DNA of 64,000 nt from Candidatus Rokubacteria bacterium RIFCSPLOWO2_02_FULL_73_56 (GCA_001788495.1 MGCF01000006.1:2106-66105); one strand, 5' to 3'. Counted from the first letter of the stretch, positions 10,346 through 35,676 are shown. The notes: generated by a model not told the origin, from the sequence alone. A program made the numbers and translations.

Positions 10346-13300
10346 TCACGCTCCGCTGATCGCGGTCGCGGGGCTCGCCTCGACCAGCTCGATGTCCGGG
10401 GCCACGTCGATGCTCCAGTCCAGGAGGTGCGACTCCGCCGACTCCGGCCGACTCAGCTCACCGCGCCGCGCGGCCGTCGTCAGGCTGCTCCAGAGATCCC
10501 CCGCCGCGTCGCCGTCGAAGATCCGGAAGTCGCGCAGGGCCGCCAGGACCCCGCCGCCGCGCTGCTCGTCGCGCGTGCTCAGGCCCGCGAACGCCCCCGC
10601 CGACCAGTCGATCCCCGGCGCGGCCGGTGCGAGGCGCACCGGCCCACCGAGCGCGACCTCGACAGGCTGCGCGGAACCCGTGTCGTGCGCGACGAGCCGC
10701 TCGCCCTGCGTCAGCGTCGGCGACATCACGTCGGCCACGCCCTCGTGCGCGAATCCCATCACGTGTCCGAGCTCGTGCATGGCCACCGTCAGCAGGTCCA
10801 CGCCGCCACTGCCGCCGCCGACGATCCAGCCGTACCCTGCAGCGTCGGCGTCGAAGACGATCGAGCGGCCCACGGTGGTGGCGAGCACCGGCCCGTCGAG
10901 CTCCGCGACCGCGAACCGGAAGTCCGCCAGCGCCCCCAGCCGCGAATCCCCGTTGCCCAGCGTGTCGGTCCACTGGCGGATCGCCGTGTCGACCGCGCCG
11001 TCCAGCGTGCGGACGTCGAGCGTGCCGGTCGCCGCCGGTGCGGACGCGATGGCCGCCGCTTCCATGTTCTGGCCGCCCGACTGCGCGAAGGCGGGATCCG
11101 TCGTCTTGATCGTGACGTTGTCGAAGCTCGCCGCTCCGCCGGTCGCGAACACGCCGAATCCGCCGTCCACGACGACCGCGTTGAACGCGAAGCCGACGAC
11201 CGCCTGACCGTTCAGCGTCACGCTGACCGTCGACCCCTTCAGCGAGATGCCCAGCGTGTAGTCGGTGCCCGCGTTGATCGTCCGGGCCACCGACGCGTCG
11301 ATGACCCAGCCGTTCTTCGCCGTGTAGTGCCCGATCACGACCTTGTCCGCGGGCGCGTCGATCGCGACGAACTTGAAGTCGTCCCCCTCGTACCGGTCGA
11401 AGACGAAGCCCGCGCGGCCCTGCGTGTTGACGATCGAGGACAGCTCGAGCACCGACGATACCTGGAACCCGCCGACGCCGAGGTCGATCAGCTTCGCCGC
11501 GGTCCCGCCCGAGGGCGGCACGGCCACGTAACGGCCGCCGCTCACGGCCCACGTTCCGCTCGTCGCGCCCGTGAACAGGTCGGCGACGCCGTCGCCGAAG
11601 TCCTCGGTCGACTGGAACGTCGCGGCCGCCTGCACCACCTGCACCTGGACGTTGTCGAACGAGCCGCGCGAGTTGTCCGAGCCCACCCCGACGAGGCCCC
11701 AGTTCAGGCCGTACGACCAGCCGTCGATCACCCGCGGCGCGAACGTGTAGGTCAGCGAGTCCTTGTTGTTGACGATGATCGTGGCGTTGAGGCCGTTGAT
11801 CGACAGCATCATGTTGTAGTACGTGTCGGCCTTCGCCAGGAACGGCGTCTGCTTGTCCACGTGCCAGCCCGAGGCGTCCCGGTGGCCGGCCACCAGCTTG
11901 TTCGTGGAGATGTCGATGCCGGTGAACTTGAAGTCGGTCTTCGTGTTGTAGTCGAAGATCAGGTAGGCGTTCCCCTTCCAGCCTGCCGTCGGCTTCACCA
12001 CGTCGACCGACGCGAGCATCTCGAAGTAGGCGGGCAGCGCGTCGCCGACCTGGTACACGGCGACCGCGTCGCCGCCCAGCGACTGCGCCGACACCTGGAG
12101 CGCGCCGCCCGAGACCGTCCACGCCCCGGAGTCGGCGAAGAACGCCTGGGCCGTACCGTCGTTGAAGTTCGCCGACCGCAGCACGTCGCGCTTGCCGCCG
12201 GGAACGTTCCCCGGCTGCGGGTCCGTGGGCGCGCCGGTCTGGTCGTGCCACGCGAAGTCCTGCTGCCTGATGACGGCGAGCTCGCCCTCCGGCTCGCCGT
12301 TCCGCGTCGGGTCCGCGCCCGTGTCGGCGGCGCGCGTCGGGTCGGCGCCGTCGTTGGCCGACAGCTGGTAGAGGAATTCCGCGAGCTGCGGCTGCAGCGT
12401 GCGGCTCACCGTCGCCATGCCGAACGGCGCAAACGGCACGAGGTAGCTGTTGAACTCGCCGGCCCAGTCGATGAGCCGGTCGCCGCCCGTGTTGCCGATC
12501 AGGACGTCGCGGCCGGCTCCGCCGAAGGCGCGGTCCTCGTAGCTGGCGGCCGTGTCGGGCGCGTTGTTGAGCCCGCCCGCCGTGGTCAGCACGTCGTCGG
12601 CGTTGAGCAGGTCGTTGCCCCAGCCGCCGTAGAGGTCGTCGCGACCCGTGCCGCCGACGAGCCAGTCGTTGCCCGTGTCGCCGAAGAGCGCGTCGTTGCC
12701 GTCGGAGAAGATCCCCGTCGCGACCTCCGCGCCCTCGGTGCTCACGAAGTTGAGGAAGAACTCCTTGCCCGCGCCCGTCTTCGACAGCTCGCCCACGTCC
12801 GTCAGCAGGATCTTCCGCAGCGGATCGTACTCGTCGTACAGCGCGAACTCGCCCGCGCGCCGCGTCCGGTCGACGTGCCAGCCGTCCGGGTCGTCCGGGT
12901 TGAAGCGGAGGATGTCGCCGTCCGCGAGGTTGAGCGGATGCCCGTAGTCGGTGCGGATGACGCCGATGAGCAGGTCGGTGGCGTCGTACAGCTGCGCGTA
13001 GGACTCGACCGGTGCCTCGGCGCCGGAGATCGCGTCGTCCCCCGAGCCGCCGTGGAGCGTGTCGTTGCCGACACCGCCGTAGATGATGTCGTCCGACTTG
13101 TGCGCGACCGTCGCGGAGCCGCCGAACTCGTCCTGGGTGCCGTTGAAGGTCACGTCCACGCTGAACGGCGTGAGGTCGGCCGTCTTCTTCAGCTGGCCGC
13201 TCACGTTGATGGTCGCCGACTGCACGTTGCCCGGCGTCGTGATGAGCAGGTCGAGCTGGCCGGCGAGGCTGCCGATCCCGTACAGCGGCTCCGCCGTGCC

Positions 13301-16300
13301 GTTCCGGCTCGTGAAGAGCCGGCCGTCGTCGCCGAGGACGCCGTCGTCGCCGGCGCCGCCCGAGATCCAGTCGTTGCCGTAGCCGGCCACGAGGTCGTCG
13401 TCCTGCCCCTCGCCGAAGAGCACGTCGTTGCCCTTCATGCCGTAGACGACGTCGTCGCCGCCCTCGCCGTGCAGCTCGTCCGCCGCGCCGATGTCGGTCG
13501 CCGCCTGCGCCGCCGTCGGCGCGTAGTCGAGACCGCCCGGGGTGTAGTCGACGAGCTGGACGCCGCGCACGACGATCTTCGCCTGCGGCACCGCCGGCGG
13601 GTCGTTCGTGTAGGTGTCGTAGTTGAAGGCCAGGAAGCCGCCGAACATCTCCACGCCGCCGCCGCCGCCCGGCGCGTCGTTGACGCCGAGCAGCCGATAG
13701 ATGTTGCCGTTGTCGCCGAGGATCACGTCGGCGTCGGTCGCGTGGCCCTGCGGCGTCAGGTTGCCCGCGTCGTTGCGTGCGACCGCGGTCCCGGAGCCGC
13801 CGAAGACGAGGTCCGAGCCGTCCGGCCGTTGGTTCGGCGTCTCCAGGCTGAACAGCGTCGAGCTGCCGCCGATGATGTCGTCCTGGCCCTGGTTGCCCAG
13901 GATGACGTCGTTCCCGCCGTTGCCCTCGACGTAGTCGTCGCCGTCGGTGGCCGCGTCGAAGGACGGGTTCAGGACGAGGGCGTTGCCCGCGTCCCGGGAG
14001 GCGCCGACGCGCGAACCGTTGCTCACGAAGTCGATCGAGCCGTCGCCCTGGATCACGTCGTCGCCGAGCTCGCCGAAGACCGTGTCGTCGCCGCCGCCGC
14101 CGGCGATGTAGTCGTTGCCGTAGAGGACGGCCGGCGTGCCGTTGGCGTGGTCCAGGAGCGTGATCTGGAAGTCGGCCCAGGCCGCGCTCCCACGCGGGTC
14201 CGCGTACTGGCTGGCCGAATTGATCAGGAGCTGGCCGGCCGTGGCCGCGGCGGTGCTGTAGACCTGCGTGCCGCTCAGCACCCGGAACCGCGGATTGGTG
14301 AAGTCGCCGAGCGTCAGCGACCGGTCGAGCGACACGTTGTCACCGAAGATCAGGTCCTTGTCCAGGCCGCCGTCGATGGCGTCGCTCCCGGTATTGCCGA
14401 TGAGGATGTCGTCGCCGGCGTTTCCGTACATCGTGTCGTCGGCGCCGTCGCTGTTGCTCTTGCTCTCCACCTGGATCACCCCGGCCGTCGACAGCAGCGT
14501 CTCCGCGATCGTCTGCGTGACGAGGCCGAAGTCGCCGAACTCGATGTCGGCGCCGCCGTCGCCGAAGAGCGTGTCCTGGCCGGGCGTCAGCGTGTCGTGC
14601 GTGTCCGGCGGGAACCCGGGAATGGGCGCCGACACGGCGAACACCGTGACCAGCTCGCGGTCGTAGAGCGTGCGGTCGATGACACCGCTGTCCTGGTTCG
14701 GCTCGGGGATGCTGACGGTCGTCTTGTGGACGTTGAACCCGTCGTCGCCGTAGATGATGTCGTCGCCGTCCTGGCCGTGGATCGTGTCGTGGCCCGAGCC
14801 GCCGGCCAGGTGGTCGCCCGCCTGGCTGCCCCAGATCGTGTCGTCGCCGCGCCCGCCGAAGATCGTGACGCTCTGGGTGGCGTTGCGCGCGTCGATCACG
14901 TCGTCGCCGGGGTTGTTGAAGGCGATCGCGTGCACCGACGCCACGCCCGACGTGCCGACGTACCGGCTACCGTCCTGCGAGGTGTCGCCGAAGACGACCA
15001 GCGGCGAACCCGCACCGCCGCCGCCGTTGATGGTGATGGTGTCGCTGCCGCCGCCGCCGTGCACGAGGGTGAGCGGGCCGCGGGTGCCGTCGGGCGCGGC
15101 CATCGTGCCGTCGATCGTCAGGCTGTCGTCGCCGCGGCCGAGCATGACCTCGAGCGTCTCGACCATCGTGTAGTTGATGCCCTTGGCGAAGTCGTGCGGC
15201 GTCCCGTCCTCGCCGACGAAGTGCAGGTCGGGGCCCATCCCGTTCATGAACAGGTTGCTGCCCGTCAGCGTGCCGACGTCGTTCGCGCCGCTGCCGTCGT
15301 TGAAGATGTTCAGCGTGTCGACCGAGCCCGTGTCGTCCGTGGTGATGACCTCGCCGACCGGGCCCGGATCGGTCTCGGTCGGCAAGATCACCGCCCGCCT
15401 GATCGAGCGGTCTTCTGGCCCGACGCTGCCGTCGATGGTGAGCGCTCCCTGGATCGCCGTGCTCGCCACGTGCGGCTGCACCGGGAAGAATTTCAGCGGC
15501 TGGATCTCGTCCGTCGGCGGGGCCTGCGGATTCGCCGTGACCCTGACGACGAACGGCGTGAACCAGTTGGTCGCGTCGAAGGTCACCGTGGCCGGGGTGA
15601 CGACCAGGCCGTCCGCGTCGAGGACGGCCGGGGTGAAGACCGGGCCGCCCGGCGGCACGACCACCGCCGAGTCGACCAGCGTCTGGTCGTCCGTCAGGAG
15701 GGCGATCGTCACCGCCGCCGCCGGCGCGTGCGTCAGCCGCAGGCTGTACGTGTCGCCGGTCGGGTCGCCCTTCACCACCAGCGTCGATCCGTCGGTCTCC
15801 CGCACGTAGACGCCGGCTCCATCCGTGTCGATGAGCTTGACGTTCAGCTTCGGAGCCGGCTTCGTCGCGAAGAAGCTTGTGTAGCTCGCGTCGGTGCCGC
15901 CCACCGCATGGCTGATCTGCGCCGTCACGGGATTCTGGACGACGAAGTCCTGGGCGGCCGCCACGTCCACGGTCGCAGCCACGTCCCAGTTGGACTCGTC
16001 GAACGTGAACGTCTGTGTCCCGGCGTTGTATCGCGGGTCGAGGCTCGAGAGCGCCAACCGCGCGTCGCTCGGACTCAGCGTCACCGTCACGGTCTGGCCC
16101 GCCGCCGGCGCCTTCGCGAGCTCCAGCGTGTAGCTGTCGGTGAGGCCGTGCGTGCCGGCCGCAGCGTCCTCCTCGAGCACCACCGTGTCCAGGTCGGTAT
16201 GCGTGAGGCGCAGCCCGGGCTGGTCGTCGTCGAGGACCCGCACCTTCACGTTGCGGATGGCCACGTGGTTGAAGTCGTCGTCCAGGCTACGGCTGCTCAT

Positions 16301-19300
16301 GCTCACGATGACCAGCCCGTCGCCTTCGCGAGCGACATCGTCGATGGCCTTGACCGTCACCGTCTTCTTGGTGCCCGCCGGCGTGCCCGCGGCGAACGTG
16401 AGCACGGCCGCGGGCTGGAAGGTGGCTCCCCCGTCGATCGACACCAGGAGCGTGGCGGCGCCGAGCGCCCCCGCCTCGGACGGGGAGCCGGCCGCCGACA
16501 CGGTGATGTACACGTCGTCCGTGGGCGCGGCCGCGAGGCTCACGTCGTAGGAGTCTTCCGTCGCGCCCGCCTCGCCCACCGTCGTCGCGCCGCCGCTCTC
16601 CTCGATCACGATCTGCCCCGAGGCCGGGGTCGCCACGTGCAGGTCCACGCCCTCCGCGGGCAGGTTGTCGTATGCCGGGTCGGTCGAGGTCACCTGGTGG
16701 TTGATGACCGCGCTGATGCCCTCCAGGTCACGGCTGACGATCGGCAGCGTCACGTCGCCGCCCACGTTGAACGTGTCCCAGCCGATGCCGCCGACCACGT
16801 TCACCGCCACATCCGCCGGCGTGCTGAGGACGAAGAAGTTGTCGTTCCCCTCCAGCCCGTCGACGGTGATGGACTGGACGTTCTCGAACGTGATGTGCAG
16901 CCCGGCCCCGAAGATGCCCTCCTCGGAGATCGCGAAGTTGTCGCTGAACTCGGTGCCGAGGACGACGATGCGGTTGAAGCCGGTGCCGCCGTCGATGTCC
17001 ACCGGCGCGTTGACGGTGTACTGGATGAGGTCGTTGCCGTCGCCGCCCAGCGCGGCCGCCTGCGCCGCCGTCGACAGGTCCTTCAAGACCTCGCCCGTGA
17101 GCGGGTCGGCCAGCGCGAAGGCGCGGATGATGAACGTGTCGTCGCCCGCGTTACCCTCGAGGCGCAGCTCCGCCTGGTTCGCGTACACCTGCATCGTATC
17201 GTTGCCCGAGCCGCCGTAGACCACCATGGGGAAGGTGACCCCGCGGCTCAGCCAGCCCTTGGTCGTGTAGATGGTCGCGATCTCGTCCCCCGGCGCCACG
17301 GCCGGCGGGATCCGCTCGGCGCCGAAGACCTGGCCGACCTGGAAGAAGTCGTCCCCGGCCCCGCCGTCGAGCGTCGTGATGCTGCTGTTGTCGTCGCTGT
17401 AGAACGCGTCGGCGCCGGTGTAGCCGTTGACGATCAGCCGTCCGTTGACGTTCTCGTCGTAGTTGATCCGCTCGACGCCGGCCAGCAGGTGCTGCGGGTC
17501 CGGCTCCGGCAGGTGGGCCGGATCCGGCGTCAGGTACGCCACGAAGTTCCGCCGGACCAGGAACAGGTCCTCGCCGTCCGGGTTGTTCGAGTCGCCGACC
17601 TCGGTGCCGTTGATGGTCAGCGTGTCGGCGCCGTCGTCCGGGGCGCCCGTGTCGAACACGTTGATGACGTAGTCGGTCGCGGTGGCGTCGGCCCGGACGT
17701 TGACCACGACGTCGTCCGTGTCGCCCTGGCCGTCGATGTCCAGGGTCGAGGCCCGCGTGTGCAGCTCGTTCACCGTGACGAGGTCGTGCCCGGCGCCGCC
17801 GAAGACCTCCACGTGGCCCGTCAGCGCGTGCGTCGGGAAGCCCGGGTCCGCGGGCCCGTGGTTCTCGTAGTCGAAGGTGATCGCGTCGTCGCCGTCCTCG
17901 CCGTAGTACCGGATCTCGGGCGCGGTGACCGTCCCCTTCGTCAGGATCGTGTCGCCCCCGCCCCCGCCGTGGACCTCCACGAAGCTCGCCGCGGTGACGT
18001 GGGCGTCGTCGACGAGGATCGTGTCCGCGTCGCTGTTGCCGGAGATCACGAGGTCGCCGGTCTGGATCGTGCCGTCGACGTCGATCGTGCTGCCGAGGCC
18101 CGGGTCGCTGTTGCCGAAGTCGCCGTCGATGATGACGTGCCCGCCCGCGCCGGTGACGAGCGAGGCGCCGCCCTCCAGGTGAAAGTCGTCGCCCGCGTGC
18201 AGCGTGATCGTGCCGTTGACGAGCACTGCCCCGGTCGCGTCCGCGTCCGGGCTGCCGAAGTCGTAGACCGCGGTCTTGAGGAAGAATCCGCTGCGGACGA
18301 CCAGGTGGTCGTCAGCGCTGTCGTCCGTCGCGATGTAGGTGATGTTGAGCGCGACGACGTTCTCGGTGATGTCGATCGGGCTGTCGGCGGTGACGGTGAT
18401 GTCGCCGCCCGCGGCCATGCCGGGGTCACCGCTGTCGACGACGCCGCCCTCGGTCAGGTCGCCCGTGTTCACGATCCACGTGCTGCCGAGGATCGCCTTG
18501 CCCTCGAGGAAGCCGATCTCCGTGTTCAGCGGGTTGCCGGCCGCGCCGATGTCGTCGCGCGCCACCAGGTACGCCTTGCCGGAGACCACGTTCTGCGGGC
18601 TGACGTTGCTGTTCAGGATGCTGCCCGTCGGTGCCGTGAGGAAGGCGGTGAACGCCGGGCCCGTGCCCGCGGTGTTCAGGTACAGGTCGCCGAGCACCTC
18701 GATGATGTAGGTGTTGGCGAGGTTGCTGTACGAGGTCAGCACGCCGGCGCCGTTCAAGCGGCTGTTGATGTCCACGTCGTTGCCGGACACGCCGATGCCG
18801 AGGAACGCCGTGAGCGTGATGCTGTTGCCGATGATCTCCGCGGCCGGCGTGTTCATTGCGTCGAAGATCGAGCCGGTGAACGCGTCGAGGTCCACGTTGC
18901 CGCTGTTCGACTGGACGTGCTCGACGTTCATGTCGCCGAACGTCTCGGAGACGAAGATGTCATCGTCCGCGTCCGCCACGAGGGTGCCGGTGCCGTTCAC
19001 GTCGACGTCGAGATAGTCGCCCGGCTCGCCGATCCCGCCGTTGTGCGCGGTCAGCACGACGTGGTTGGCGTTGATCTTCGTGAAGTCCGTGTCCAGCGCG
19101 TCGAGGATCGAGCCGTCGAGCGCCGTCAGGTGCACACCTTCCACACCGCTCTGCGAGAACATGAACTCCACGTTCATGTCGTCGTTCTGCTCGACGAGGT
19201 AGATCGCGCCGAGCGCGCGCGCCGTGATCGTGGCGCTCGCGCCGAGGTCGGTCTTGACCGGGGTCACCGCCGTCCCGATCGAGCCGTTGGCCGCTTCGAG

Positions 19301-22300
19301 GATGGTGTCGCCACCGATCACGTTGGTGCCGCCCGTCACGTTCAGGATCGACTGGCCGCTCTTGATCCGGATGTCGTCGTCGAGATCCGTCTGCACGAGG
19401 CCGAGGTTGATGTTGTGGGTCTCGGACCCGAGGTAGACGCTGTCGTGCGCGCCGACGTCGACCTGGTCCACGATCTCGACGTCGACGTCCTCGCGCTGGT
19501 CGATGACGATCGTGTGGATGTTCGCGCCCGGCGCGGTCGGGTCGTTGACCTCGGGCGCGATGGTCAGCACGACGCCGTCCTGGTCCAGCAGGTTCGCGGT
19601 CACGACCAGGTCCGCCCCGGAGACGGAGGCGACGACGTAGAACTCGCCCACGTCCGTCGCGTTCGCGCCGCCCGTCACGTGGATCCGCGTGTCGGGCGCG
19701 AACAGGACGGGGTCCCAGGTCCCGGACGTCCGGTGGAACGTGTGGGGCCCGGTGACGTCGACGGTCGTGGTGACCGCCGGACCCAGGTACGTCACGTCGA
19801 CGCGCTCGGCGGCCGCGAGCGCCACGCGCTCGTCGTTCGTGAGATTGTGGACGCCCCCGCTCACGTCGATGGTCGTGACGCCGACCGCCTTGCCCACGCC
19901 CTTCGACGCCGTGATGACCAGATTGGCGCCGGTGATGTTCGGCTCCTCGATCGTCGGGCTCGTGTCCGCGATGTCCTTCAGGAGGCCGGTGCTGATCGTG
20001 TAGAGCAGCTCCTCCTCGGTGAAGATGTGGATGCTGCCCTCGATGTCCGAGGTCTCCTGCGCCGTCAGCGTGTAGGCGAATGACGCATCGAAGCCGTCGA
20101 ACTCCAGGCCCACGAGGTGATCGACGAGCCCGCCCGGCTCGCCGTACTGCGTGTTCAGCGTGTGGTACTGCGCCGTCCGGCTCGCCTCGAGCGCCAGGAT
20201 GGCCGCGTCGTCGTAGCCGAGCTGGGTCCGGTAGAAGGCCTCCTCCTGCGGCCGCAGGTGCACCGGGAAGGCGATGTCGAAGACGTTGCTGCGGTACTTC
20301 ACCGCGGCGCCGGTGCTGAGCCCGTGGCCCGCGATGTGGATCGTGTCCGTCGCGCTGTCGACGTCCGCCAGCGGGTCGAACAGCCCGGTGCCCACGCCGC
20401 CGGCGTCCAGGCGGTGCTGGGTGCCCAGCGCGCCCGTGCTGTCGAGGTCGAGGTAGTGCCCGAGCCCCGCCTCCAGCGCGCTGACCGCCAGCCGCACGTG
20501 GTCGTCGTCCACCTTGACGATGTAGTACGTCCCGTCGGGCGCGAGGACGTCGGACACGACGGTGTGCACGGCCGTGTCGCCGGTCTCCACGCTGTAGCGG
20601 ACCACGTCGCCCGTCGCCAGGCCGTGGCCCGTCCCGAGATCGATCGCGTCCAAGGCGTTGTCGAGGTCCGTCGAGGTGCTGAAGAGCCGCACGCGATACA
20701 GCGCCTGGCTCGCCGGCGAGCCGTTCGCTGTCAGGTTCACGAAGCCGGCGTCGGCCAGATGCACCTTCAGCTTGATCGTGTTCGCGTCGACGACGCTCAC
20801 GTAGTACGTGAGGCCCTCGGTGAGCCCGATGCTCGTGCCGTGGGTCTCCTGGCTGTAGGTCACCGCGTCGCCCTCGCTCAGGCCGTGGGCGGCGAGCGTG
20901 ATCGTCTCGGCCGTGCCGTCGACGGCGGTCTTGGCGTCGAAGAACAGGCCCGTGCCGACCGTGATACCGTGGCCGGACCCTGTGGCGCCGGTCCCGTCGA
21001 TGTCGATCGCCTTCCCGCTCTGGGCGTCGCCCGCGCTCAGGGCGAGCTTCATCGTGTCGCCGGCGACGATGGCGTAGTACTTCACGCCGCCGCCGAGCGC
21101 CACGGAGGCCTCGTGGATCGTGAGCGGCGCGCTCGGCTGGCTGTGCCGGTACTCCCAGTACGTCTGGTACTCCTGCTCCCGCAGCGCGGCCAGCGAGTCC
21201 TTGACGTCCTGGACCTTGGCGTTGGCGCCCGTGCCCGCGGTGAGCCGCAGGTCGTGCCACGGGCCGGCGAGCAGCTGCTCGTACGTCCGCTCGTCGCGCG
21301 TCTCGGCCTCGTTGGCGTCGACGACGCCGCCGTTGACCACCGTGATGTGCACGTCCGCCGGCGTCGAGATCGACTCGACGTTCAGGTTGCCGTCCTTCTC
21401 CTGGACGTAGATGTCGGCGCCCGCGGCGATGTTCACCTTGTCCCACTGGAAGACACCGGCGTCGAGGATGAGCGGCTTGCCGTTGGCGCCGACGGCGCCG
21501 TTGGCGGTCAGTCCGATGGCGCCGCCCTCGACGAGCCCCTCGTGCCCGCTCGCCACGAAGATTCCGCCCTGCGACGTCAGCGTGACCTCGCCGCCCGAGC
21601 CGAAGATGTTGTGCTGGCTCTTCACCTGGTCGACGCGCAGGTCGCCGAAGCGCTCGTCGATGTGGACCTCGCCCGACGTGGTCGTCGCCTTGAGGCTCGC
21701 CGACGAGTTCTCGCTGAGGTCGGTCGTGATCGGGTTCTGGTCGGTCCCGACGCCGGTGCCCGCGATCAGCTCGATCCGCTGGCCGGCGACGACGGCGTCG
21801 GCGCTCTGCTGGATGATCGACTTGGTCGTCGAGATCTTGGTCGTGCCGGTCGGGTTCGTCACCGGCCCGTTGAGGATGACGTTGCCGTTCGAGTCGACGT
21901 CGATGTCGCCCTGGGTGAAGCCGATGAACTGCACGCTGATCGGCCGGTCGGACTCGATGGTGTGCGTGAAGACGTGCAGGTTGTCCTGCTCGGCCTCGAT
22001 CTCGTTGTGATACGTCGTCTCGCCGTACCAGGTGCTGTCCGAGTGCTGGTCGATGATGTGGATCTTCTTCTCGCTCTCGTGGATCTCCTCGTAGTCGAAC
22101 GTGTACTTCACGCCGTCCAGCGCGAGGTCCTTGAAGTAGTAAGGGCCGTTGCCGAGGAGCACCGGCGGGCCGAGGGGCTCGTGCTGGTCCCAGGTGACGG
22201 TCTCCGGATCCACGGACAGCCAGTCGATACCGAGCCACGCGCTCACGTCGTGGTGGTAGTAGAAGTAGTCACGCGTCCGCGCGCCGCGCTGCCAGCCGTA

Positions 22301-25300: not shown

Positions 25301-28300
25301 GATCTTCCGGAGCGACGAGTTGCCGCCCAGGATCTCCGCGGTGGTCGTGCTGTCGTTGTTCGTGTCGGCCACGGCCGCCGCGCCCGAGAGCACGAAGCCG
25401 ATGCTGCCCGAGACCGTGTCGGCGAAGTTGTCGTCCGTGCCGTGGGCGATGATGACGAGGGTGCCGCCGGTGAGCTTGACGTTGTTGCCCACGAAAGCGT
25501 GCGTCACCGTGTCCGACGACGCGATGCCCGTCGCGATACCGCCCGCGACGAGGCCAACCGTGTTGCTGCTGGAGTCCGCCAGCTGCCGGCTGTCGTTCTT
25601 CGCCTCGACCTTGGTCTGGCCGGTGATGGTCAGCGTCGAGTTGTCGCCGATGGAGGCCGAGACCTCGCCGTTGTCGGTCGCCTCGCTGATGGTGGCGTCG
25701 AGGCCGACGAGGCCGCCGGCCGAGCCGGTCGTCTTCGCCTTGGCCGTGTAGCCGCTGGCGCCAACCTGCTGCTTGCCGGTGACGCTCAGGCTACCCGCGA
25801 CGATCGTCCCGGCCACGACTGCCGTGACCACGGGCGAGGCCTCGACGTCGGCGAGCGAGAAGCCGGCGCCGAGGACGCCGACGGCGATGCCGAACGTCTC
25901 GGCGCGCGCGAACGGCGTGGCGGTCGCGGCGACGGACACCCCGCCCGTCACCGTGATGTGCCCGCCGGTGCCGATCGTCGCCTCGATCTCCGGCGTGACG
26001 TCCACGAAGGCGAAGTTGCCGGCCATCGCGCCGATGCCGCCCGCCAGCGCCTCCGTCTGGGCGTAGGCCGTAACCGTCGAGGCCGCGCTCACCGACACGC
26101 TGCCGACCGTTCCACTCTGCCCGATCTCGACGTTGCTGCCGATGAACGCGCGCGTGTCCGTCGCCGAGCCGTTGTCGACGTCGATGATCACGAACGCGGC
26201 ACCGGCGCCGACGGCGCCGATGCTGAGCTGCCCGGCGTGGCCGTGGAGGTTCTGGTCGCCGACGGCGGACACGAGCACGCTGCCCGCGCGGATGATGGTC
26301 GCGTTGTTGAGGATGCCGGCCGACACGGTGCTCGCGTCGCTGATGGCGACGACGGCGGCGCCCAGGCCGACGAAGCCGACGGAGCCGGACAGGGAGGTGA
26401 CGACGATGTCGTCGTCGAGGATGCCCTTCACGTTGATGTGACCGGCGCTGCCCGCCTTGAGCGTGCCCCCCGCCTCGGCCTCGGCGTTCACGCCCACGTT
26501 CACCACGGCGATCGACGCGCCGACGCCGACGAACCCGCCCGCGACGCCGCCGGTGATGATCTCGATGTCGACGTCCTCGTTGGCCGTGACCTCGATGTTG
26601 TGGCCGGCCTCCACGTTGGTGGTGCCGCCCTGGATCCGCGCCACCGTGCCGGTGGACGGCGCCGCGCCGGTCACGGCATCCTGGATGGCCGTCGTCGAGG
26701 GCGCGGAGCCGGACAGGCTGGTCCCCGCGCTCTGCGTGCCCGAGTCCACGCGGTTCTGGCTGGTCTTGCTGTTGCCGCTGCCGTCGCCCGAGAACCCGCC
26801 GAGGAGGCCGGAGACCTGGCCGCTGGACTTCCCGCCCTGGTCGGCGGCGTCGTCCGTGGCCGAGCCGTTGTCGCCCGCGGTCGCGGACGCGTGCGTGCCC
26901 TCGTCGTTCTGGTAGTCCGAGGAGATCGGATTGCCGACCGACCACACGGAGACGGCGGCGGTGAGGCCGACGAGGCCGCCGGCGCCGCTGAGCGTGAAGC
27001 CGTCCACCTCGTGGATGCCGACCGCGTTGACCTCGACGTCGTTCTCGGCGTCGACGACCGCGCCGCTCCGGATCTCGGCCAGCGTGTCGTTGTTGAGGCT
27101 GCCGACGTCGACGGCGCCACCGACCCCGACCACGCCGCCGGCCACGCCGACGACGAACGTCGACAGGTGCGCCTGGTTGGAGGCCCCGACGTAGACGCCC
27201 TGATCGGCGTCACCGCTGAGCCCGGCGCCCTGGTTGATGCTCGCGTTGCTGCCGATGAAGGCGGTGGTGTCGGAGTCGACGAGGGTGACCGCCACCGCGC
27301 CGGACACGCCGACGAAGCCCACGCCGGCCGCGATCACGAGGTGGAGGACCTGTTCCTTCGACTGCGCCTGGACGATGACGCCGTGCGCCTCGGCCAGCGT
27401 GTCGGGGTCGCCCCCGCCGATCTCGCCGTTGAGGATGCCGCCGAAGCCGCTGCCGCTGCCGTCGGCGTCGACGTCGGCGCCGTTGGCGATGAACGCCGAG
27501 GTGTCCTTGTTGATGACCATCACGCCCACGGACGCGCCGATGCCGACGAAGCCGCCCGCGATGCCGCCGGACACCATCGTGATGTCGGTATTGTCCGTGG
27601 CGATGACCGCGACGTCGCCGCCCGCGACGACGGTGGCGTTGCCGATGGTGGCCGTGGTGGTGTTGTTGATGGTCAGCACGTCGACCGCGCCGCCGATGCC
27701 GACCACGCCGCCGCCCAGGCCGAAGGCGACCTGCACGACGTGCTCGTCCGCGTGCGCCTCGACCTCGACGTCGTTCATGGCGTGCACGACGGCGCCCGCG
27801 CCGATGGAGGCGAGCGTGGTGTTGCTGAGCACGGTGACGTCGACGGAGGGCGCCACGCCCACCACGCCCACGCCGAGCGAGCCGGCCACGGCCAGGTGGT
27901 AGAAGTCGTTGCCGGCCGCCACGCTGACCGACTGCGCGGCGTCTGCGCCGCCGCCGAGGTTCACCTGCGCGTTGTCGCCGATGTAGGCGTTCGTGTTCGT
28001 GCTGATGACGTTGACGCCGGCGGAGATGGCGACCCCCGCCGTGCCGCCCGCGACGCTGATCGTGAACGTCGCGATGTCGTCCCGGTTCGTGGCGGCGAGC
28101 GCCACACCGCGCCGGGACTGCTGGCCGGGGCTCACCGAGCGGGCGCCGGAGAGCGACGGATCCGTCGCCTCCGAGTTGCCGTCGTTGTTCGAGTCCATGT
28201 TGCTCATCGTCGGCGTGTGGACTTCGCCCTGGGCCTTCAGTGACGTCGAATCGGGGCTGCTCGAGACCGAATCGGCGTGGATGCCCTCGCCGCCGGCGTT

Positions 28301-31300
28301 GTTCGGGTCGAACGTCGGGGCGGCGTTGTTGAACGCCTCGCCAAAGCTGCCGTCGTTGACGAGCACGGCGCTGGTCGTGCCGTCGCCCGAAACCCACGCG
28401 CCCGCGCCGATGAAGGCCTCGGTGGTCTTGCTGACGACGCTCACCGCGCCGGAGGCGGCGACGCCGGCGGTGCCGGACACCGCGAGCACGCCGACGATCT
28501 TGTCCATCTCGGTCTGGTCGTCGGCGGTGATGACGACGTTGCCGCCCGCGTGCACGTGGCCGGCGCCGGCGGAGGCCGGGCCGCCCGTGGGATCGTCGCC
28601 GATCCACGCCCGCGTCTGGTTCGTGACGATGTGCACCGACGCGTCGAGGGCCACCGACGCCGTGCCGCTGAGGCTCATGCCCGCCGCGACCGAGGTGACG
28701 TCCTCGCTCGCGACCGCGCTGACCTCGATGTCGCCCTCGACCTCCGCCGTGACGTTGGAGTCGATGTAGGCGAGCGTGTCCTTGGTGATGGTCGCGACGT
28801 CGGCACCGAGGCCCACGCCGGCCGTGCCGCCGGCCGCGAGGTTGCCGGCCACGGAGACGATGTCCGTGTCGTCCTGGGCGTGGACCGACAGGTCGGGCTT
28901 GCCCGAGGCGCCGTCGTTCACGGTGATGTTCGCGCTGCGGCCGATGAACGCGTGCGTGTGCTCCGTGAGGACGTTCACGACGGCCGAGCCCGCGACCCCC
29001 GCGGTGCTGGCGCCGCCGCCCGCGGCGGCGATCGTGATCAGGTCCTCGCTCGAGGTGGCGGCGATCGTGATGCCGGTCGCGCCGTCGGAGGTCACGACCG
29101 CGTTGTCGCCGATGTAGGCCTCGACCGTGTCGGTGTGGACGAGGACGCTGGCCGCCGCGCCGACGCCGGCCGAGCCCGCGCTCGCGCCGATCGACCCGGC
29201 GACCATCGTCGCGTCGAGGTGGCCGTCGGCCGTCACGTCGATGTCGCCCGCGTGCACGGTCGCGCCGCCGATGTATGCCCGCGTCGTCGTGGTGAGCACC
29301 TGGACCGTGCCGGAGCCGGCGACGCCGACGGAGTTCCCGATGCCGGCGTTCGCGGCGATCGAGACGATGTCCTCCGACGAGTCGGCGTCGACGGTGAGCG
29401 CGCCGGCGGAGTCGACGGTCGCGCCGGTCGTGATGTAGGCCTCGGTGTCCTTGGAGATCACGCTGACTTCGAGCCCGGCGCCGACGCCGGTGGAATCGGT
29501 CGAGATGCCGAGCGCGCCCGCGGCGTTCGTCATGTCGATCGTGCTGGACGCGTGCAGGCCCACCGACTGGCCGCTCGGGGTGATGCTGCCGTCCTGGTTG
29601 ACGGCCGCGGTCCCGGCGATGTAGGCGTGGGTGTTGACCGTGTAGATGGTGATGTCGGCCGCGCCCGCGATCCCGACGCCGCCGTTGCTGCCGCCGCCCG
29701 CCAGCGCCGCCGAGCTGATCGCGATTGCCGGGTCGTCGACGACGGAGTTGTCCGGCAGGTCGAGCGTCGGCGGGGGCGCCAGCGTCGTCGTGGCGTCGAC
29801 CGTCAGCGCGCCCGCGGCGTCCGCGGCGCCCGCGATGAACGCGTCCGTGTCGCTGGTCACCACGGTCACGGCCACGGCCGCGCCGACCGACGTCCCGCTC
29901 GAGAAGCCGACGCCCGCGGCGATCGTCTGGAGGATCAGCTGGTTCTCGGCCGTGACGTGCAGGGCGCCCGTCGACAGCAGGTGCGCCGTGTTCGCGACCG
30001 AGGCCTCCGTGGTGAACGTCACCACGTTGACGGCGACCGAGCCTGCGATCCCGATGTCGCCCGTGCCGCCGGCCGCCGCAGCGCCCCAGACGATGAACTC
30101 GTTCTTGTTGCTGCCGGTCGTGACGGCCTCGACCGTGATCCCGTCGCCGTGGATGACCGAGCCGCCCAGCACGCGCGCCTTGTTGTTGATGCTCGCGACG
30201 TTCACGCCGACCGCCGCGCCGATCATGTTCGAGTCCTCGAGCGTGACCGCGAGCCCGAGGGCCTTCGAGGTCTCGTCCACCTCGGCCTGCGCGCTGACCT
30301 TCACGGCGCCGGTCGTCGTGATGTCGGCGCCGCTGGCGACCTCCGCGATGTTGTCGAGGCCGATGTAGCTCACCGCCACCGCGGCCGCGACGCCGACGCC
30401 GCTCGAGCCGCCGCCCGACTCGCCGCCGGCCGTGCCGCTCGCGGCGCTGGTCTGCCCGCTCGCCGACGGCGTCGACTGCGAGCCGGCGTTGCCCGTGACG
30501 TTCGTGGTGTTCGCGGCGCCGCTCGACTTCGAGTCCGCGCTCTGACCGCCCTCCGACTGCTTCTTCTCGCCGCCCGCGCTCGCGTTCACCTCGAGCGTGC
30601 TCGACATCTTGGACTTGGCCTGGACCGTGAAGCTACCGCTCGCGTTGTCCACGCTGCGAGCCAGCGTCGCCGTGCTGCTGTCGGTGACGACGACCACGCC
30701 GACGGAGGCGCCGATCGCCGCATCCGAGCCTTCGGCCTCGGAGCTGACCGTCGTGCCGAAGGTGCCCTGGTGGTCGGTGCTGATCTGGGAGGCGCCGCCG
30801 CCGAGATGGACGACGCCGCCGGTGCCGACCCGCGCGGTCGTGTGGTTCTCGGAGATGACGACCGCCACGGCGGCGCCGATGCCGGTGTCGCCCTTCGCGC
30901 CGTTCTTCGCCTCGGTCGTGAGGTCGTCCTTGCCGGTCGCCTGGGCCGACAGGTGGTCGATGCCGGTGCCCGTCACCGCGACGCCGTTCTCGAGCTCGGC
31001 CGTGGTGTCGTGCAGGACCAGGTTCAGGGCGAACGAGGCGCCGATACCCGCGCTGTCGGCCCCGCCCTCGCCGTCGCTGTCCTCGTCGGGCAGCGCCTTG
31101 GCGGTGTCCTCGGCCACCGAGGTGGCGGTGAGCTGGATCCCGCCGACTCCGGTCCCGCCGTCGCCGCCGTCCGCCAGGTTCAGGGTCGCGCCCGTCTCGA
31201 TGGACGCCGTCGTGTCGACGTCCGAGTAGTTGATGGCGACCGAGGCCGCGATGCTGATGTCGTCGGCGCCGGCGCCCGAGGTCGCCTGGGCGGAGAACGA

Positions 31301-34285
31301 GTGCTTGTCGGTCACCTCGGAGACGACGTCCGTCATCTCGGCCTTGACGCTGACGCCGTCGGCCGTGATCGTCGCGTCGCCGATGTGGGCGGAGTTCGTC
31401 ACGAGGGCGACGTTGATGGCCACCGCGGCCGCGATGCCCGTGCCGGCGTTGGCGACCGTCCCGTCGGCGGTCGCGCTCGCGTCCACGTTCTCGGAGGCCT
31501 GGACCGTCAGGGCGCCGTCGGAGTCGATCGTGACGCCGTCCGCGATCTGGGCGCGCGCCGTCGCCTTGGCGACGTTCACGGCGATCCCCGCGGCCACGCT
31601 CACGTTGTCGTTGTCCTGGTTCTGGGCCTTGGCCTTGTCGTTGCTGCTGTCCGCGCCCGAGGCGTGGCTGCCGCTGCCGCGGTTGGCGCTGGCCTGGGTG
31701 TTGCCGAAGTCCCGCTGCTGATTGCTCTTCTGCTGGGCGTTCTTCCCGCTGGAGTCGCTGCCCTCGCCCTCCCCGCCTTCCGCGCTCGCCTTGGCCTCGG
31801 CCAGGCTCTTCGAGCGCCCCTTGGCCTTGAACCGTGTCGCCCCGCCGGTGGTGACGCTGCGCGTCGTCTCGGACACGACCGTGTCCTGCGCCCAGCCGAA
31901 GGCGATCGCCACGCCGACCGCGACGTCGGTGCCGACGGCCTTGCCCTCGGCCTTCGTGCTGACGTCGCTCGTGCCGCTGGCGTCCGCGAGCAGCTCGCCC
32001 CCGACCACGAGCGCCGGCTGCAGCGCCGTGCCCTGGATCTGGGTCGCCGTGTCGAGGGTCACGACCGAGACGGCGACGACCGGCGCGATCGCGTTCCCGC
32101 CGGCTCCGCCGCCCTTGGCCTCGGTCTCGATCGTGTGGGTCGCCGTCGCCGTGAGGTGCACGTCGTCGGCGTCCGTGAAGACGACGCCGGAGCCGATCGT
32201 CGCCTTCGTGTCGTTGTCGGCGACGGTGAGCGCCACCGAGGCGCCGACGCCCGTGCTCTTGCCGGCGTCGTCGTCGCCGTCGTCGTCGTCGATGCTCGCC
32301 TCGGCCCTCGCCGTGATGTGGGTCGTCGACTCCGCCAGCAGCGTCAGGCTGCTGCCGTTGAGGTCGACCGTCGCCGCGGGGTCGACCAGCGCGTAGACGT
32401 TCGCGATCGTGACGTTGATCGCCAGCGCCCCGGCGAGCGCAAGGCCCGACGACCCCCCGCTCGCCCCGGACTTCGCGGTCACGTCGAAGTGGCTGTCCGG
32501 CATCACCGCGTGCACGGTGATCCCGTTCGGCCCGTCGAGGCTCGGGCTGCCCGTGAGCCACGCCTTGACCTCGACGACGTGCACGCCGATGCCGACGCCG
32601 AGGCCCACGCCCTCGGGGTTGTTGTCGGTCGTCGAGCCGTCGCCGATCGTGGCGATGTCGTAGGTGCCGCTCGCGGTGAGGCCGATCGTCGTGTCCGAAG
32701 TGATCGTCGCGTCGTCGATCTCGGCCCACGTGTGGCCGGTGATGACCGACACCGCGACGGTCGCGGCGAAGTTGACGTTCCCCTCGCCCGTCGCGGCCCG
32801 ATCGCTCGTGTCGCTGTCGTCGTTCGGGTCCTTGAGCCGCTCCTTGGACGTCTGCGAGCCGTCGTCGGCGTGGTCCTTGGCGCCCTTGGGCGACGCCTTC
32901 GCCGTCGTGTCGACGGTCCGGCTGGTGGTGGCCGCGATCGCGACCGAGCTTGCGTCGATCGAGGTCGTCGCGTCGCTGATCACGACTTCCGTGTCGCCGA
33001 AGACCACGCTCACGGCGACGATGGCGCCCGCGGTGCTCGAGTTGCCGAGCGTGCCGTCGGCCGTCGTCGTGAGGTGGACGGTGTTCGTCGCGTCGATCGT
33101 CGCCGCCCCCGTCGCCACCAGGTCCGAGTCGTTGTGGACGGTGACCGTGGCCGAGCTGCTGACGACCGCGACCGCGAACGAGGCGTCCGTCGTGGTTTCG
33201 GTGTTGTCCTTGCTGCCGTCGGTCGGATCGGGCTTCCGCGCGAGCGTGAGGCTCGGCATGCTCGACGTGGCGTCGATGTCGATCGTGCCGGTCGCGGCGA
33301 GGTCCGCGTTGTCGAGGTCCACGGTGGCGGACGAGAACAGCAGCAGCTCGCTGAAGTTGACCTTCCCGTCGAGCTTGCTGGCGGTGTTGATCGTCACCGT
33401 TTCCTGGCTCAGGGCCAGGATCGTGATGTCGTGACCGCTGATCGTCGAGTTCGTGACCGTGACCTCGGCGGACGGCAGCTGCAGGAAGTCGGCCGAGTCG
33501 GCGTCGCCCGTGACGGTGCTGGGCTTCCCCGCGTTGAGCGTCACGTCGTGCGCGCTCAGCGTCGTGCCGGTCATGTGGATCGTCGAGTCGGACTCGACGG
33601 TGAGATCCTTGCCGCCGGTGAGCGTGAACGTGCTGGCGGCGACCTCGATGTCGCTCGAGCTGTGGAACCGGAGGTTGAAGCCGACGCTCGTCGGGCCGGT
33701 GCCCTGCAGGCGGAAGAGATCGTTGCCGATGCCCGGGATGACGCCCTCGAGGAACGAGATGTCCTTGCCGCCCACGAAGTCGATGTCGAGGAGCCCGCCG
33801 TCGCCGCTCACGAAGGTCGCGAGCGCGGGCAGGTCGAACGAGTCGAGATCGATGCGGATCGTGTCGCCCCGGAGGTCGCTGTTGGTGTCCCCACCGTCGC
33901 GCTGGATGACGACCTGGTGCTCCCCGGCGTTGTCCAGCACGGCGGAGGCGAGGACGTTCCCGAGGTTCCCCGTCTCGCGCAGCTCCAGGATCGGGTCGGA
34001 GCCGCTCAAGTCCGCGACCAGCGTCATGTCGGCGACGAGGCTGAGCGTCGGGTACGTGAGGTTCGCGGACAGCAAGAGCCGCGGCTCCAGCGTCTCGAGC
34101 GCGAACGCCTGGCGCTGCCGCGCGAGGTCCGCGAGACGCGCCCACCGGCGGCCGGCACGGCGCCGCTGGGCGCCCTGCGCGTAGATCGATTGCATGAGGC
34201 GATGGAAAAAGAGCTCGGCGATCGTGCGGACACGCGAAGCGCGCCGACGCGGACGGGACGGACGGGCGTCGAGCAGCGTGGTCAT
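10346..34285 (-). CDS. Giant (7979 aa) secreted or surface protein. It carries an LEPR-XLL-type N-terminus, beta-solenoid repeats, Calx-beta-like domains, RTX repeats, LamG-like domains and a C-terminal metzincin domain.
   Basis: A single uninterrupted track ORF with AAGGGAG 7 nt upstream of the ATG. Composition and motifs are listed in the sub-features below. All long plus-strand ORFs across it are Arg/Gly/Asp/Val-rich shadow frames. Confidence 0.9.
   Translation of the reverse strand: [7979 protein letters not shown]
10745..10777 (-). other. Metzincin zinc-binding motif [11 protein letters not shown], followed by a possible Met-turn (DVMSP), 132 codons before the giant gene's stop
   Basis: [29 protein letters not shown]. 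This is the HExxHxxGxxH signature. Coordinates were derived by codon arithmetic from the track stop. Confidence 0.75.
11110..12180 (-). other. Two LamG/concanavalin-like domains within the giant gene (approximate bounds)
   Basis: [25 protein letters not shown]...[39 protein letters not shown]...GSFDNVQVQ, then [26 protein letters not shown]...[38 protein letters not shown]...ASFDNVTIK. Confidence 0.6.
12480..15070 (-). repeat. Haemolysin-type Ca-binding (RTX, GGxGxD nonapeptide) repeat region within the giant gene (approximate bounds)
   Basis: [135 protein letters not shown]. Confidence 0.75.
15500..16700 (-). other. Calx-beta-like domains within the giant gene (approximate bounds)
   Basis: [23 protein letters not shown]...[59 protein letters not shown]...[43 protein letters not shown]...[18 protein letters not shown]. 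Confidence 0.55.
20290..23960 (-). repeat. Scattered H-G-L-x-x-G-D...Y...YYV modules within the giant gene (approximate bounds)
   Basis: [19 protein letters not shown]...[32 protein letters not shown]...[37 protein letters not shown]...[34 protein letters not shown]. Confidence 0.5.
24700..33400 (-). repeat. Degenerate protein-level beta-solenoid-type repeats within the giant gene (approximate bounds)
   Basis: There are dozens of units such as [68 protein letters not shown] and [27 protein letters not shown]. The consensus is roughly G.(G/A)(V/G).(A/G)(S/A).(A/V)V.V....T.A.IG... with a period of roughly 55-60 aa. Confidence 0.6.
34064..34090 (-). other. LEPRLLLSA motif (codons 66-74) closing an Arg-rich, non-hydrophobic N-terminal region of the giant protein
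   Basis: [74 protein letters not shown]. From memory this matches the NCBI family model named LEPR-XLL domain, which is found at the N-termini of very large proteins. Confidence 0.7.
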
Positions 34286-35645: not shown

Positions 35646-35676
35646 CGGCCCGCGTTGGGGGGCCGGCGCGCGCGGC

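Follow-up and report, generated by a model that had tools for sequence, protein, structure and literature searches.

A giant LEPR-XLL-family exoprotein of a Rokubacteria bacterium and the secondary-SecA cassette that may export it

How does a bacterial protein of almost 8,000 residues leave the cell when it carries no Sec signal and no obvious signal for a type I secretion system (T1SS)? The question is raised by one gene in a 64,000-nt stretch of DNA from Candidatus Rokubacteria bacterium RIFCSPLOWO2_02_FULL_73_56 (GCA_001788495.1, MGCF01000006.1:2106-66105), here called the window, whose positions are counted from its first letter. The giant gene runs on the minus strand from 34285 to 10346 and encodes 7,979 residues. 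The genes directly downstream of it, on the same strand, are the most informative clue on secretion. The best explanation, which we regard as probable, is that the product is a giant exoprotein of the LEPR-XLL family whose N-terminal leader targets it to the export cassette encoded downstream; the export model taken by itself, which is read from gene order and domain content, stands close to an even balance.

That the open reading frame (ORF) is a genuine gene is well established. A single frame of 7,979 codons plus stop without an internal stop had been described in the original prediction; the frame is indeed uninterrupted, and a coding signature and a ribosome-binding site can now be added. 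The G+C content at codon positions 1, 2 and 3, measured across the full 24-kb ORF, is 0.64, 0.48 and 0.97; the sequence AAGGGAG stands 7 nt ahead of the ATG at 34285; and curated profiles (Pfam, NCBIfam) match the ORF from end to end. These three observations identify a gene and not a chance frame. The product has a mass of 808.6 kDa and a pI of 4.18, with 1,005 acidic and 349 basic residues and no cysteine at all. A chance open frame, or an artefact of repeat collapse or expansion during assembly, was nevertheless considered, since the GC-rich DNA of the window (68-78% G+C) contains many long spurious ORFs and the underlying data are short-read metagenome assemblies. Besides the gap between codon positions 3 and 2 and the curated matches along the whole ORF, the internal DNA repeats are merely 60-76% identical to one another, and the window is colinear with four contigs from other samples across 20,252 nt, with 8-18 substitutions and no indels. 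In addition, gene callers returned the 7,979-residue product in at least five independent metagenome assemblies (ERZ27254803, ERZ27254793, ERZ28563641, ERZ27254809 and ERZ27254791). The artefact reading was rejected on the codon signature, the diverged repeats and the indel-free colinear assemblies, its probability being negligible, and the earlier worry about repeat collapse or expansion can be laid aside.

The proteins of neighbouring genes are 76-81% identical (one at least 90%) to Rokubacteria/Methylomirabilota proteins. The exact 7,979-residue sequence was not found by look-up in a clustered protein collection. Relatives in two protein collections reach only ~1,100-2,200 residues and all returned matches appear to be fragments, so the family is under-represented there as full-length proteins; full-length relatives were read from GTDB loci and PLSDB plasmids. 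In the long-read assembly L005 (ERZ25039541 contig_131037, 1-11992), as in L080 and L082, apparent frameshifts split the homologous giant gene into several ORFs.

The N-terminus gives a first clue to the question. The leader, residues 1-90 (34016-34285), is basic (net charge +12) and contains a conserved 'ELFFxRL' segment followed by LETLEPRLLLSANLTYP. Residues 1-75 hold 17 Lys and Arg versus 5 Asp and Glu, and the longest hydrophobic run within the first 120 residues is four residues. An Arg-rich N-terminus with LEPRLLLSA at residues 66-74 and no hydrophobic core, as the original prediction had it, is thus what the protein possesses, and this N-terminus is neither a Sec nor a Tat signal. It is non-classical, as was claimed, but it is also catalogued: residues 61-81 (34043-34105) match the LEPR-XLL domain (NCBIfam NF012209, 'LEPR-8K') with 25.2 bits against a cut-off of 17 (E 8.6e-6, profile positions 1-21 of 24). 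A word-indexed search with the N-terminal 300 residues gave one match, and an exhaustive HMMER search was used instead; it returned 79 relatives, every one of which matches at its own N-terminus. The pattern [LFIMV]ExR..LL is present in 72 of the 79, at residue ~6-72 (mostly 40-70) and after a K/R-rich stretch, within the local consensus ...F.LE.LEPRLLLSADL.Y. The domain that follows the leader, residues 91-319 (33329-34015), is kept in these relatives, whose matches extend to residue ~300.

The giant protein therefore belongs, with hardly any doubt, to the catalogued and widespread LEPR-XLL family. Like other members, it carries the 24-residue LEPR..LL motif at its N-terminus after a basic stretch, is about 8,000 residues long and contains 53-residue repeats (283 bits). 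The LEPR-XLL protein of Vibrio sp. VB16, also of ~8,000 residues, ends in RTX and serralysin domains (PMC10868602), which resembles the C-terminal RTX and metalloprotease of the window protein. LEPRxLL domains have further been reported in Cag_663 and Cag_665 of Chlorobium chlorochromatii (36,806 and 20,647 residues; bioRxiv 10.64898/2026.03.19.712371); these differ from the window protein in their C-terminal domains and in a SapC/TolC neighbourhood. The present member is distinguished by its origin in Rokubacteria/Methylomirabilota. [quoted passage not shown]

A second clue lies immediately 3' of the giant gene. A 373-residue DUF3467-domain protein (9131-10252) begins 93 nt past the giant gene, with no terminator-like site between the two. 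It is followed by an accessory insert (5577-9134) encoding an unknown 290-residue protein, an O-methyltransferase, a DUF3467 protein of 102 residues, a radical SAM enzyme and a further DUF3467 protein of 112 residues. Next come a GAF-HlyD membrane-fusion (adaptor) protein of 585 residues (3660-5417), which is conserved after giant genes, and a 715-residue fusion (1507-3654) of a PqqD-like domain (residues ~18-110; a RiPP recognition element, RRE, where RiPP stands for ribosomally synthesized and post-translationally modified peptide), an M50 intramembrane metalloprotease with HELGH and NxxPxxxxDG intact, and HlyD. The cassette then continues with a truncated SecA paralogue, 617 residues in full, of which 1-1370 is in the window before the window start cuts it; it combines a DEAD motor, with Walker A and DEAD motifs intact, and a preprotein cross-linking domain, ends in the scaffold helix without the C-terminal third, and scores under the SecA equivalog cut-offs (630 vs 814). 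A short adaptor of 274 residues is encoded just outside the window after the SecA paralogue, and unrelated genes lie beyond it. Neither an ABC exporter (ABC_membrane, HlyB-type) nor a gene for an outer-membrane efflux protein (OEP) or TolC was detected in the 64-kb window.

The block from 5577 to 10252 thus holds three DUF3467 paralogues, one of them fused to an unknown domain of ~270 residues. The same accessory set follows giant genes in three other loci (L009, L012 and L050), and a role in modifying the giant protein or some small partner is conceivable.

To see how constant this arrangement is, we recovered 80 GTDB loci with the C-terminal module of the giant protein (described below), 54 of which were evaluable in having at least 6 kb of 3' flank. 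In 25 of the 54, the giant gene is followed by GAF-HlyD, PqqD-M50-HlyD and SecA-like genes in this order. The cassette starts 0.2-2.4 kb past the giant stop in 23 of these 25 loci and lies on the same strand in 24; the outliers are L063, where it starts ~9.3 kb downstream, and L078, where it is on the opposite strand. Its proteins are 40-65% identical to those of the window, and the hosts include Nitrospiraceae, Nitrospinaceae, Geomonas, Pseudomonas, Rhizobacter, Ramlibacter, Methylomicrobium and Desulfobulbaceae. Of the 54 loci, 35 contain at least one accessory or cassette gene. The SecA-like gene has a short adaptor next after it in 21 loci, and small DUF3467 genes occur in ~20. The 715-residue fusion belongs to a large family of very constant length, with at least 6,404 matches.

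A SapC-family gene directly follows the giant gene in 22 GTDB loci (L006, L015-L017, L022, L030, L032, L035, L042, L044, L053, L057, L060, L063, L066, L069, L072, L076, L078, L079, L083 and L085), lies divergently upstream of the giant gene in Alisedimentitalea (L089 33558-34355), and adjoins Cag_663 (bioRxiv 10.64898/2026.03.19.712371); none was recognised in the window. Paired giants with the same C-terminal module within ~40 kb were seen twice, as L008/L036 (JACQTO010000156.1) and as L044/L046 in Rhizobacter sp. Root404 (NZ_LMDS01000001.1), and in the latter the export cassette lies between the two giant genes.

Plasmids give the same picture, the cassette standing immediately 3' of a giant ORF in all eight evaluable records. 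These ORFs measure 8,148 residues in Alisedimentitalea, 8,847 in Methylosinus, 10,518 in Mesorhizobium ciceri, 12,737 in Pseudosulfitobacter, 10,603 in Pontibrevibacter, 4,033 in Thalassospira, at least 6,025 in Ensifer and at least 2,547 in Pseudohalocynthiibacter. No ABC exporter is annotated in the eight cassette neighbourhoods, and in Methylosinus and Thalassospira the cassette ends with a gene of the TolC family.

What the cassette-linked giants share is the leader, not the C-terminus. The Methylosinus and Alisedimentitalea giants have only patchy similarity to the window protein; the former ends in a LamG domain with no HExxH there, and the latter lacks an HExGH motif throughout its length and ends in a repeat-rich region that does not resemble the end of the window protein. 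At the N-terminus, on the other hand, the leaders read ...IIFDTLEPRVLLNADVL in Methylosinus, ...HFEALEPRLLLSADF in Mesorhizobium, ...HLETFEPRVLLSADL in Pseudosulfitobacter and ...HVEPIEPRILLSAD in Thalassospira, and the Pontibrevibacter and Thalassospira giants are named 'LEPR-XLL domain-containing protein' by NCBI. In Alisedimentitalea scapharcae (NZ_CP123586.1, L089 33226-33330), VVEQLEPRLLLAADF is encoded, in the same frame, shortly upstream of the annotated ATG, so that the RefSeq start of the 8,148-residue 'calcium-binding protein' appears to be mis-called and its leader clipped. Altogether the LEPR-XLL motif is found in all eight cassette-linked giants, the window protein included, whose N-terminus is readable or named by NCBI. 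In Rhizobacter sp. Root404 the next ORF downstream of the cassette begins ...LEALEPRLLLSG, and in a Betaproteobacteria metagenome-assembled genome, where the cassette was not located, the ORF directly downstream of the giant gene begins ...IEALEPRVLLSAD. If these two ORFs are continuous with the C-terminal module seen farther along their contigs, as we infer, they encode ~10,700 and ~9,650 residues.

The annotation of the cassette proteins varies. The SecA paralogue of Methylosinus sp. C49 plasmid pMSC49a (L094 3173-5089), 56% identical to that of the window, is annotated 'prepilin peptidase', and others (L095, L097) are called 'DEAD/DEAH box helicase' or 'translocase'; the 715-residue fusion appears as 'PqqD family protein', 'peptidase M50', 'biotin/lipoyl-binding protein' or 'hypothetical protein'.

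The machine itself is already on record. Kamneva, Poudel and Ward (2015; PMC4452313) described a 'secondary SecA_DEAD domain protein' encoded together with GAF-HlyD, Peptidase_M50-HlyD and HlyD/biotin-lipoyl proteins and, in some cases, an OEP, and noted no ABC transporter. They proposed a role in secretion, with SecA as the ATPase and M50 as the membrane component, and called the broader biological role of the locus completely unknown; substrates, giant proteins, RTX and LEPR are not mentioned in that paper. In the literature searched, their term was taken up later by one paper, in passing. The window contains the same four genes in the same order, likewise without an ABC transporter; it differs in that the cassette sits directly after a LEPR-XLL giant, and the PqqD-like domain and the DUF3467 and SapC neighbours are additional. 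The phyla that Kamneva et al. listed are those in which LEPR-type leaders have been reported. The export machine is therefore known already, and what is new, within the literature searched, is the proposal of LEPR-XLL giants as its cargo.

Based on the results presented above, a relation of cargo and machine may be proposed. The leader would direct the giant protein to the machinery encoded downstream and not to a T1SS with an ABC transporter that recognises a C-terminal signal. In this scheme the leader would be bound by the peptide-binding, PqqD-like part of the M50-HlyD fusion and cut off by the M50 intramembrane protease, and the truncated SecA paralogue would drive the ATP-dependent threading of the unfolded, cysteine-free chain, in what we take to be the outward direction. 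A TolC-type channel in the outer membrane, which some genomes encode within the cassette and the present one presumably elsewhere, would be reached through three HlyD-type adaptors. Once outside, the RTX block would be folded by calcium, and the LamG-LamG-matrixin module would form the ligand-binding, proteolytic tip of a long solenoid fibre. Put more generally, the LEPR-XLL leader, and by extension the planctomycete motif RRLxxExLExRxLLA, may be the targeting signal of a distinct envelope-spanning export pathway with N-terminal cargo recognition and intramembrane leader removal, in which the truncated SecA paralogue and the PqqD-M50-HlyD fusion would replace the ABC transporter of a T1SS. We put this general statement forward tentatively, at a little less than an even chance.

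The C-terminal part of the protein bears on a different route, in which the giant is a classical T1SS substrate. The main RTX block, residues 6400-7290 (12416-15088), consists of GGxGxD nonapeptides, located mainly at residues 6410-7264, and the ~2.6 kb of such repeats first described are strongly supported by Pfam HemolysinCabind (PF00353), which gives 76-141 bits in up to 10 stretches against a gathering score of 23, along with 27 matches to a regular expression. A first, looser RTX-like block occupies residues 5440-5869 (16679-17968), with motif matches at 5440-5832 and 39% homology to the Alisedimentitalea giant. On the rival reading the protein is a giant RTX adhesin like LapA of Pseudomonas fluorescens or MpIBP of Marinomonas primoryensis, exported C-terminus first through an ABC-HlyD-TolC system encoded elsewhere, with its signal in the last ~110 residues; the cassette would only regulate or process it, for example by freeing an N-terminal retention module. 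The strong RTX block, the lack of cysteine and the pI of 4.2 agree with this, the disordered C-terminal tail fits it, HlyD-type adaptors and TolC are present in cassettes, and the M50 protease could act like LapG in release. LapA and MpIBP resemble the window protein in their very large size, acidity and abundance of repeats, and in having RTX close to the C-terminus and ligand-binding domains towards the distal end; HlyD-type adaptors and TolC are likewise common to both systems. However, they use an ABC exporter and have the C-terminal signal directly after RTX, whereas ABC genes are lacking from the window and from the annotation of the eight plasmid neighbourhoods, in line with the loci of Kamneva et al. 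(PMC4452313). In place of the N-terminal retention module that LapG cuts at TAAG, the window protein has the basic LEPR-XLL leader; the first 400 residues contain no TAAG or [TP]AA[GV] motif, and no LapG or LapD gene was seen among the scanned neighbours in the window.

The distance from RTX to the C-terminus also bears on this route. About 715 residues, most of them in folded domains (LamG-LamG-matrixin) and the last of them in a disordered tail, follow the last RTX repeat, which puts ~600 folded residues between the RTX block and the tail and makes a classical C-terminal T1SS signal doubtful; the doubt is reinforced by the conserved ABC-less secondary-SecA cassette directly downstream. The original prediction that such a signal is less obvious here was thus a reasonable one. 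The tail, residues 7870-7979 (10349-10678), is predicted to be disordered (predicted local distance difference test, pLDDT, <50) and is unconserved across homologues. In ~75 other loci, 38-260 residues (mostly 72-260) separate HExxH from the stop, and the tails of 58 homologues sort into several classes that bear no relation to one another, with only two (L025 and L082) agreeing in their last 75 residues. Over the ~100 residues past the matrixin, the classes observed in L006-L085 include 'W..FVNHLG....NPNA.L.V.L', '(F/Y)DSLG..LLGKGK', acidic runs and Pro/Ala-rich, Lys-rich ends; a search among these homologues for a class that goes with the presence of the cassette found none. Cassette-linked giants have unrelated C-termini and a common N-terminal leader, and export by a classical T1SS appears rather unlikely, although it is a rival of some weight.

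A second rival concerns the cassette and not the giant. The M50 part of the fusion is nearest to RiPP leader peptidases (164 bits to the daptide model, cut-off 300, and the YydH/LiaK model), and M50 leader peptidases with an RRE (daptide MpaP-type, YydH/LiaK) have the PqqD-like domain, the M50 core and an intact HExxH in common with it. PqqD-like and M50 domains are typical parts for RiPP recognition and leader removal, DUF3467 genes are the commonest immediate neighbours, and those of the window are interleaved with a radical SAM enzyme and a methyltransferase. The cassette could then be a RiPP-like pathway for small peptides or proteins, in which DUF3467 substrates are bound by the PqqD-like domain, trimmed by M50 and exported, and the giant gene is a mere frequent neighbour, or the target or partner of the product. 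The M50 protein of the window, unlike the RiPP peptidases, is fused to HlyD and syntenic with a SecA paralogue and giants, not with short precursors. Several observations weigh against a RiPP-like pathway. DUF3467 has a conserved core of ~70 residues and a variable N-terminus, a pattern opposite to that of a leader-core precursor and closer to what a folded chaperone or adaptor would show. Genes for a radical SAM enzyme and a methyltransferase are present in only 3-4 loci, whereas the association with LEPR-XLL giants spans phyla and all eight evaluable plasmids, and a SecA motor with a preprotein clamp suits the threading of polypeptides better than peptide efflux. We consider the RiPP-like pathway improbable. 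As to DUF3467 itself, the idea of a SecB-like chaperone was dropped, since neither comparison with E. coli SecB by hhalign (probability 0.1, with an approximate SecB sequence) nor a PDB profile search, which gave no match, supported it.

The proposal that the leader addresses the giant to the cassette has its own difficulties, and the following points weigh against it. Synteny, which is what it builds on, falls short of proving a cargo relation. The full cassette is absent within 10 kb downstream in 29 of the 54 evaluable loci; in some of these a second giant gene lies directly downstream, and the missing cassette may be located upstream or beside the tandem giant gene. Conversely, one metagenome cassette (L086) has no large gene beside it, and another follows a 2,867-residue Ig-domain protein whose N-terminus was unread. 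On Thalassospira marina plasmid pCSC3H3 (L098, 5540-24505) the order is LEPR-XLL protein (4,033 residues), DUF3467, HlyD, M50 fusion, short adaptor and TolC, without a SecA-like gene; here the SecA paralogue is either dispensable or supplied from elsewhere. No obvious inner-membrane channel is encoded in the cassette, and the TolC partner of the present genome was not found in the window or operon. RTX repeats, zero cysteine and a disordered C-terminal tail would also fit a classical T1SS substrate, as noted above, and the PqqD-like domain could have its true ligand in the small DUF3467 proteins; an AlphaFold model of DUF3467 built from the three window paralogues reached a pLDDT of 47.

If the giant protein is exported, what does it carry to the outside? 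Its last 640 residues were aligned with 73 homologues and modelled with AlphaFold. Residues 30-530 of this module have a pLDDT mostly >90 and form two beta-sandwiches and a small alpha/beta domain, and the last ~110 residues are disordered. The beta-sandwiches are two tandem domains of the LamG/concanavalin-like lectin fold, residues 7370-7549 and 7557-7728 (11102-12178), which Foldseek matched to laminin LG4-5 pairs, tandem galectins and CBM66 with a probability of 1.0 (for CBM66, a template modelling score normalised to the target, TMt, of ~0.8 and a root-mean-square deviation of 2.5-2.8). By sequence alone they are below the Pfam threshold (3keto-disac_hyd, PF06439, 20 bits vs 26.8), and it is the confident model with its Foldseek matches that bears out the two LamG-like domains proposed earlier. 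The small domain, residues 7740-7869 (10679-11068), is a compact matrixin-type metzincin. The motif HELGHVMGFAH at 7837-7847, with 132 residues after it, and the Met-turn DVMSP at 7852-7856 are where they had been placed, and Pfam Peptidase_M10 (PF00413) is now matched above its gathering score of 24, at 26.9 and 29.4 bits, in an alignment limited to profile positions 87-137 of 159. In the PDB, karilysin and the catalytic domains of matrix metalloproteases (MMPs) match best by sequence, with a best E of 4e-5 and alignments covering the zinc-binding helix and the Met-turn. All 74 aligned sequences have the same His, Glu, Gly and His at the zinc site, and because these catalytic residues do not vary, the protease is probably active.

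The combination of a metzincin zinc site and RTX in one polypeptide recalls the serralysins (M10B: AprA, PrtC, ZapA), and it was against this serralysin-type order, protease N-terminal and RTX C-terminal, that the window protein had implicitly been judged. This was the wrong class for comparison. Serralysins are proteins of ~50 kDa with the protease first, then RTX and signal, whereas the order is reversed here; the only ZapA_metallo match, at residues 6459-6512, is inside the RTX block and scores 24 bits vs a cut-off of 940; and the protease instead aligns best with matrixins and karilysin (M10A). With karilysin and the bacterial MMP-like matrixins it has HExxHxxGxxH and the Met-turn in common. 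It differs from them in lacking a cysteine-switch prodomain, in aligning over no more than the C-terminal half of the catalytic domain, and in its fusion to two LamG domains where an 8,000-residue fibre ends.

The LamG-LamG-matrixin end is the norm for its family. Among the candidates scored, 402 significant relatives of the module were found, with 44-62% identity among 120 listed, and it occurs in more than 505 loci in GTDB contigs (one genome per species) from many phyla. Burkholderiales dominate; further hosts include Steroidobacteraceae, Nitrospiraceae, Nitrospinaceae, Phycisphaeraceae, Tepidisphaeraceae, a cyanobacterium, Acidobacteriota, Actinomycetota, Geomonas, Pseudomonas, Rhizobacter, Ramlibacter and Cognatazoarcus. 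In ~70 of ~80 loci the ORF upstream of the module is open to the locus edge, exceeding 3,300 codons where the full 10-kb flank is given, and the few exceptions with a closed ORF resemble frameshifts in long-read assemblies. The metzincin end is therefore conserved among giant homologues, zinc site included, and with this module so common and the N-terminus catalogued, the architecture is not unusual, contrary to the original prediction.

The role of the matrixin may be approached from the same data. In MARTX toxins, a cysteine protease domain self-processes the toxin. By analogy, the matrixin might cut the giant protein itself after export, for maturation or release, and not act outwards; the original prediction had offered self-processing and a delivered effector domain as alternatives. 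The invariant catalytic residues, the constant tethering of the protease at the extreme end beside a disordered tail, and the absence of a prodomain or cysteine switch speak for such a role; a cysteine-switch propeptide is ruled out by the zero cysteine count, with the modelled protease domain compact at ~130 residues, and any latency would need another mechanism. Against it, the lectin-fold pair always accompanies the protease, suggesting targeting to an external ligand, and no conserved cleavage motif was found. Self-processing is compatible with either export route and leaves room for an external substrate; we regard it as unlikely.

Between the leader and the RTX blocks lies the putative shaft. 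Tandem repeats rich in Gly, Ala, Thr and Val, in units of ~53 residues, cover residues ~320-2850 (25736-33328), in agreement with the solenoid repeats seen at the outset. They match NF012206 (LktA_tand_53, tandem repeat filamentous protein) with 283.1 bits in 14 stretches against a cut-off of 50, and a repeat hidden Markov model (HMM) that we built from six clear copies maps the diverged ones over the same range. They are predicted to form the beta-solenoid shaft of a fibre, ~2,500 residues long. The post-repeat and central region, residues 2851-5439 (17969-25735), has no family assigned; it contains the HGLxxGD...YYV modules noted before, in three copies at residues 3444, 4467 and 4554, which give a faint Pfam match to the endosialidase beta-barrel (End_beta_barrel, E 0.03-0.07), and a PDB sequence search with residues 3300-4720 gave no match. 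The beta-rich region at residues 5870-6290 (15416-16678) had been called Calx-beta-like. This call found no support: Calx-beta (PF03160) gave no Pfam match at E <= 5 in the tile of residues 5601-6550, a PDB sequence search with 5870-6290 was without match, and no similarity of the region to homologues bearing PF03160 was found.

The stretch upstream of the giant gene (34566-41130) encodes a group-1 glycosyltransferase in divergent orientation, along with a zinc alcohol dehydrogenase, a secretin-domain protein, an ABC ATPase and a glycosyltransferase of the PMT_2 type; beside giant genes elsewhere, these do not recur. A MoxR-type AAA ATPase (AAA_3) stands beside a DUF58 protein at 52956-55232 on the minus strand, a common pair unrelated to the present finding.

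By itself, the giant protein adds another member to a catalogued family; its value is in the link to the cassette. That link connects two things that were unconnected in the literature searched: the LEPR-XLL/planctomycete motif on giant surface proteins, and the secondary-SecA/M50/HlyD locus. It also draws attention to problems of annotation, namely leaders clipped by mis-called starts, a misnamed SecA paralogue, and giant genes fragmented in metagenome protein sets. LEPR-XLL giants and the cassette are adjacent across many phyla, including the culturable Rhizobacter, Mesorhizobium, Ensifer, Pseudomonas, Geomonas and Methylosinus. If the proposal is true, it would give a cargo and a signal to a locus that had no identified cargo in 2015, and an export route to many of the largest bacterial proteins, of 4,000-12,000 residues. 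Two questions would thereby become approachable: by what route the largest proteins of bacteria get out of the cell with neither a Sec nor a T1SS signal, and what a second SecA does in Gram-negative bacteria.

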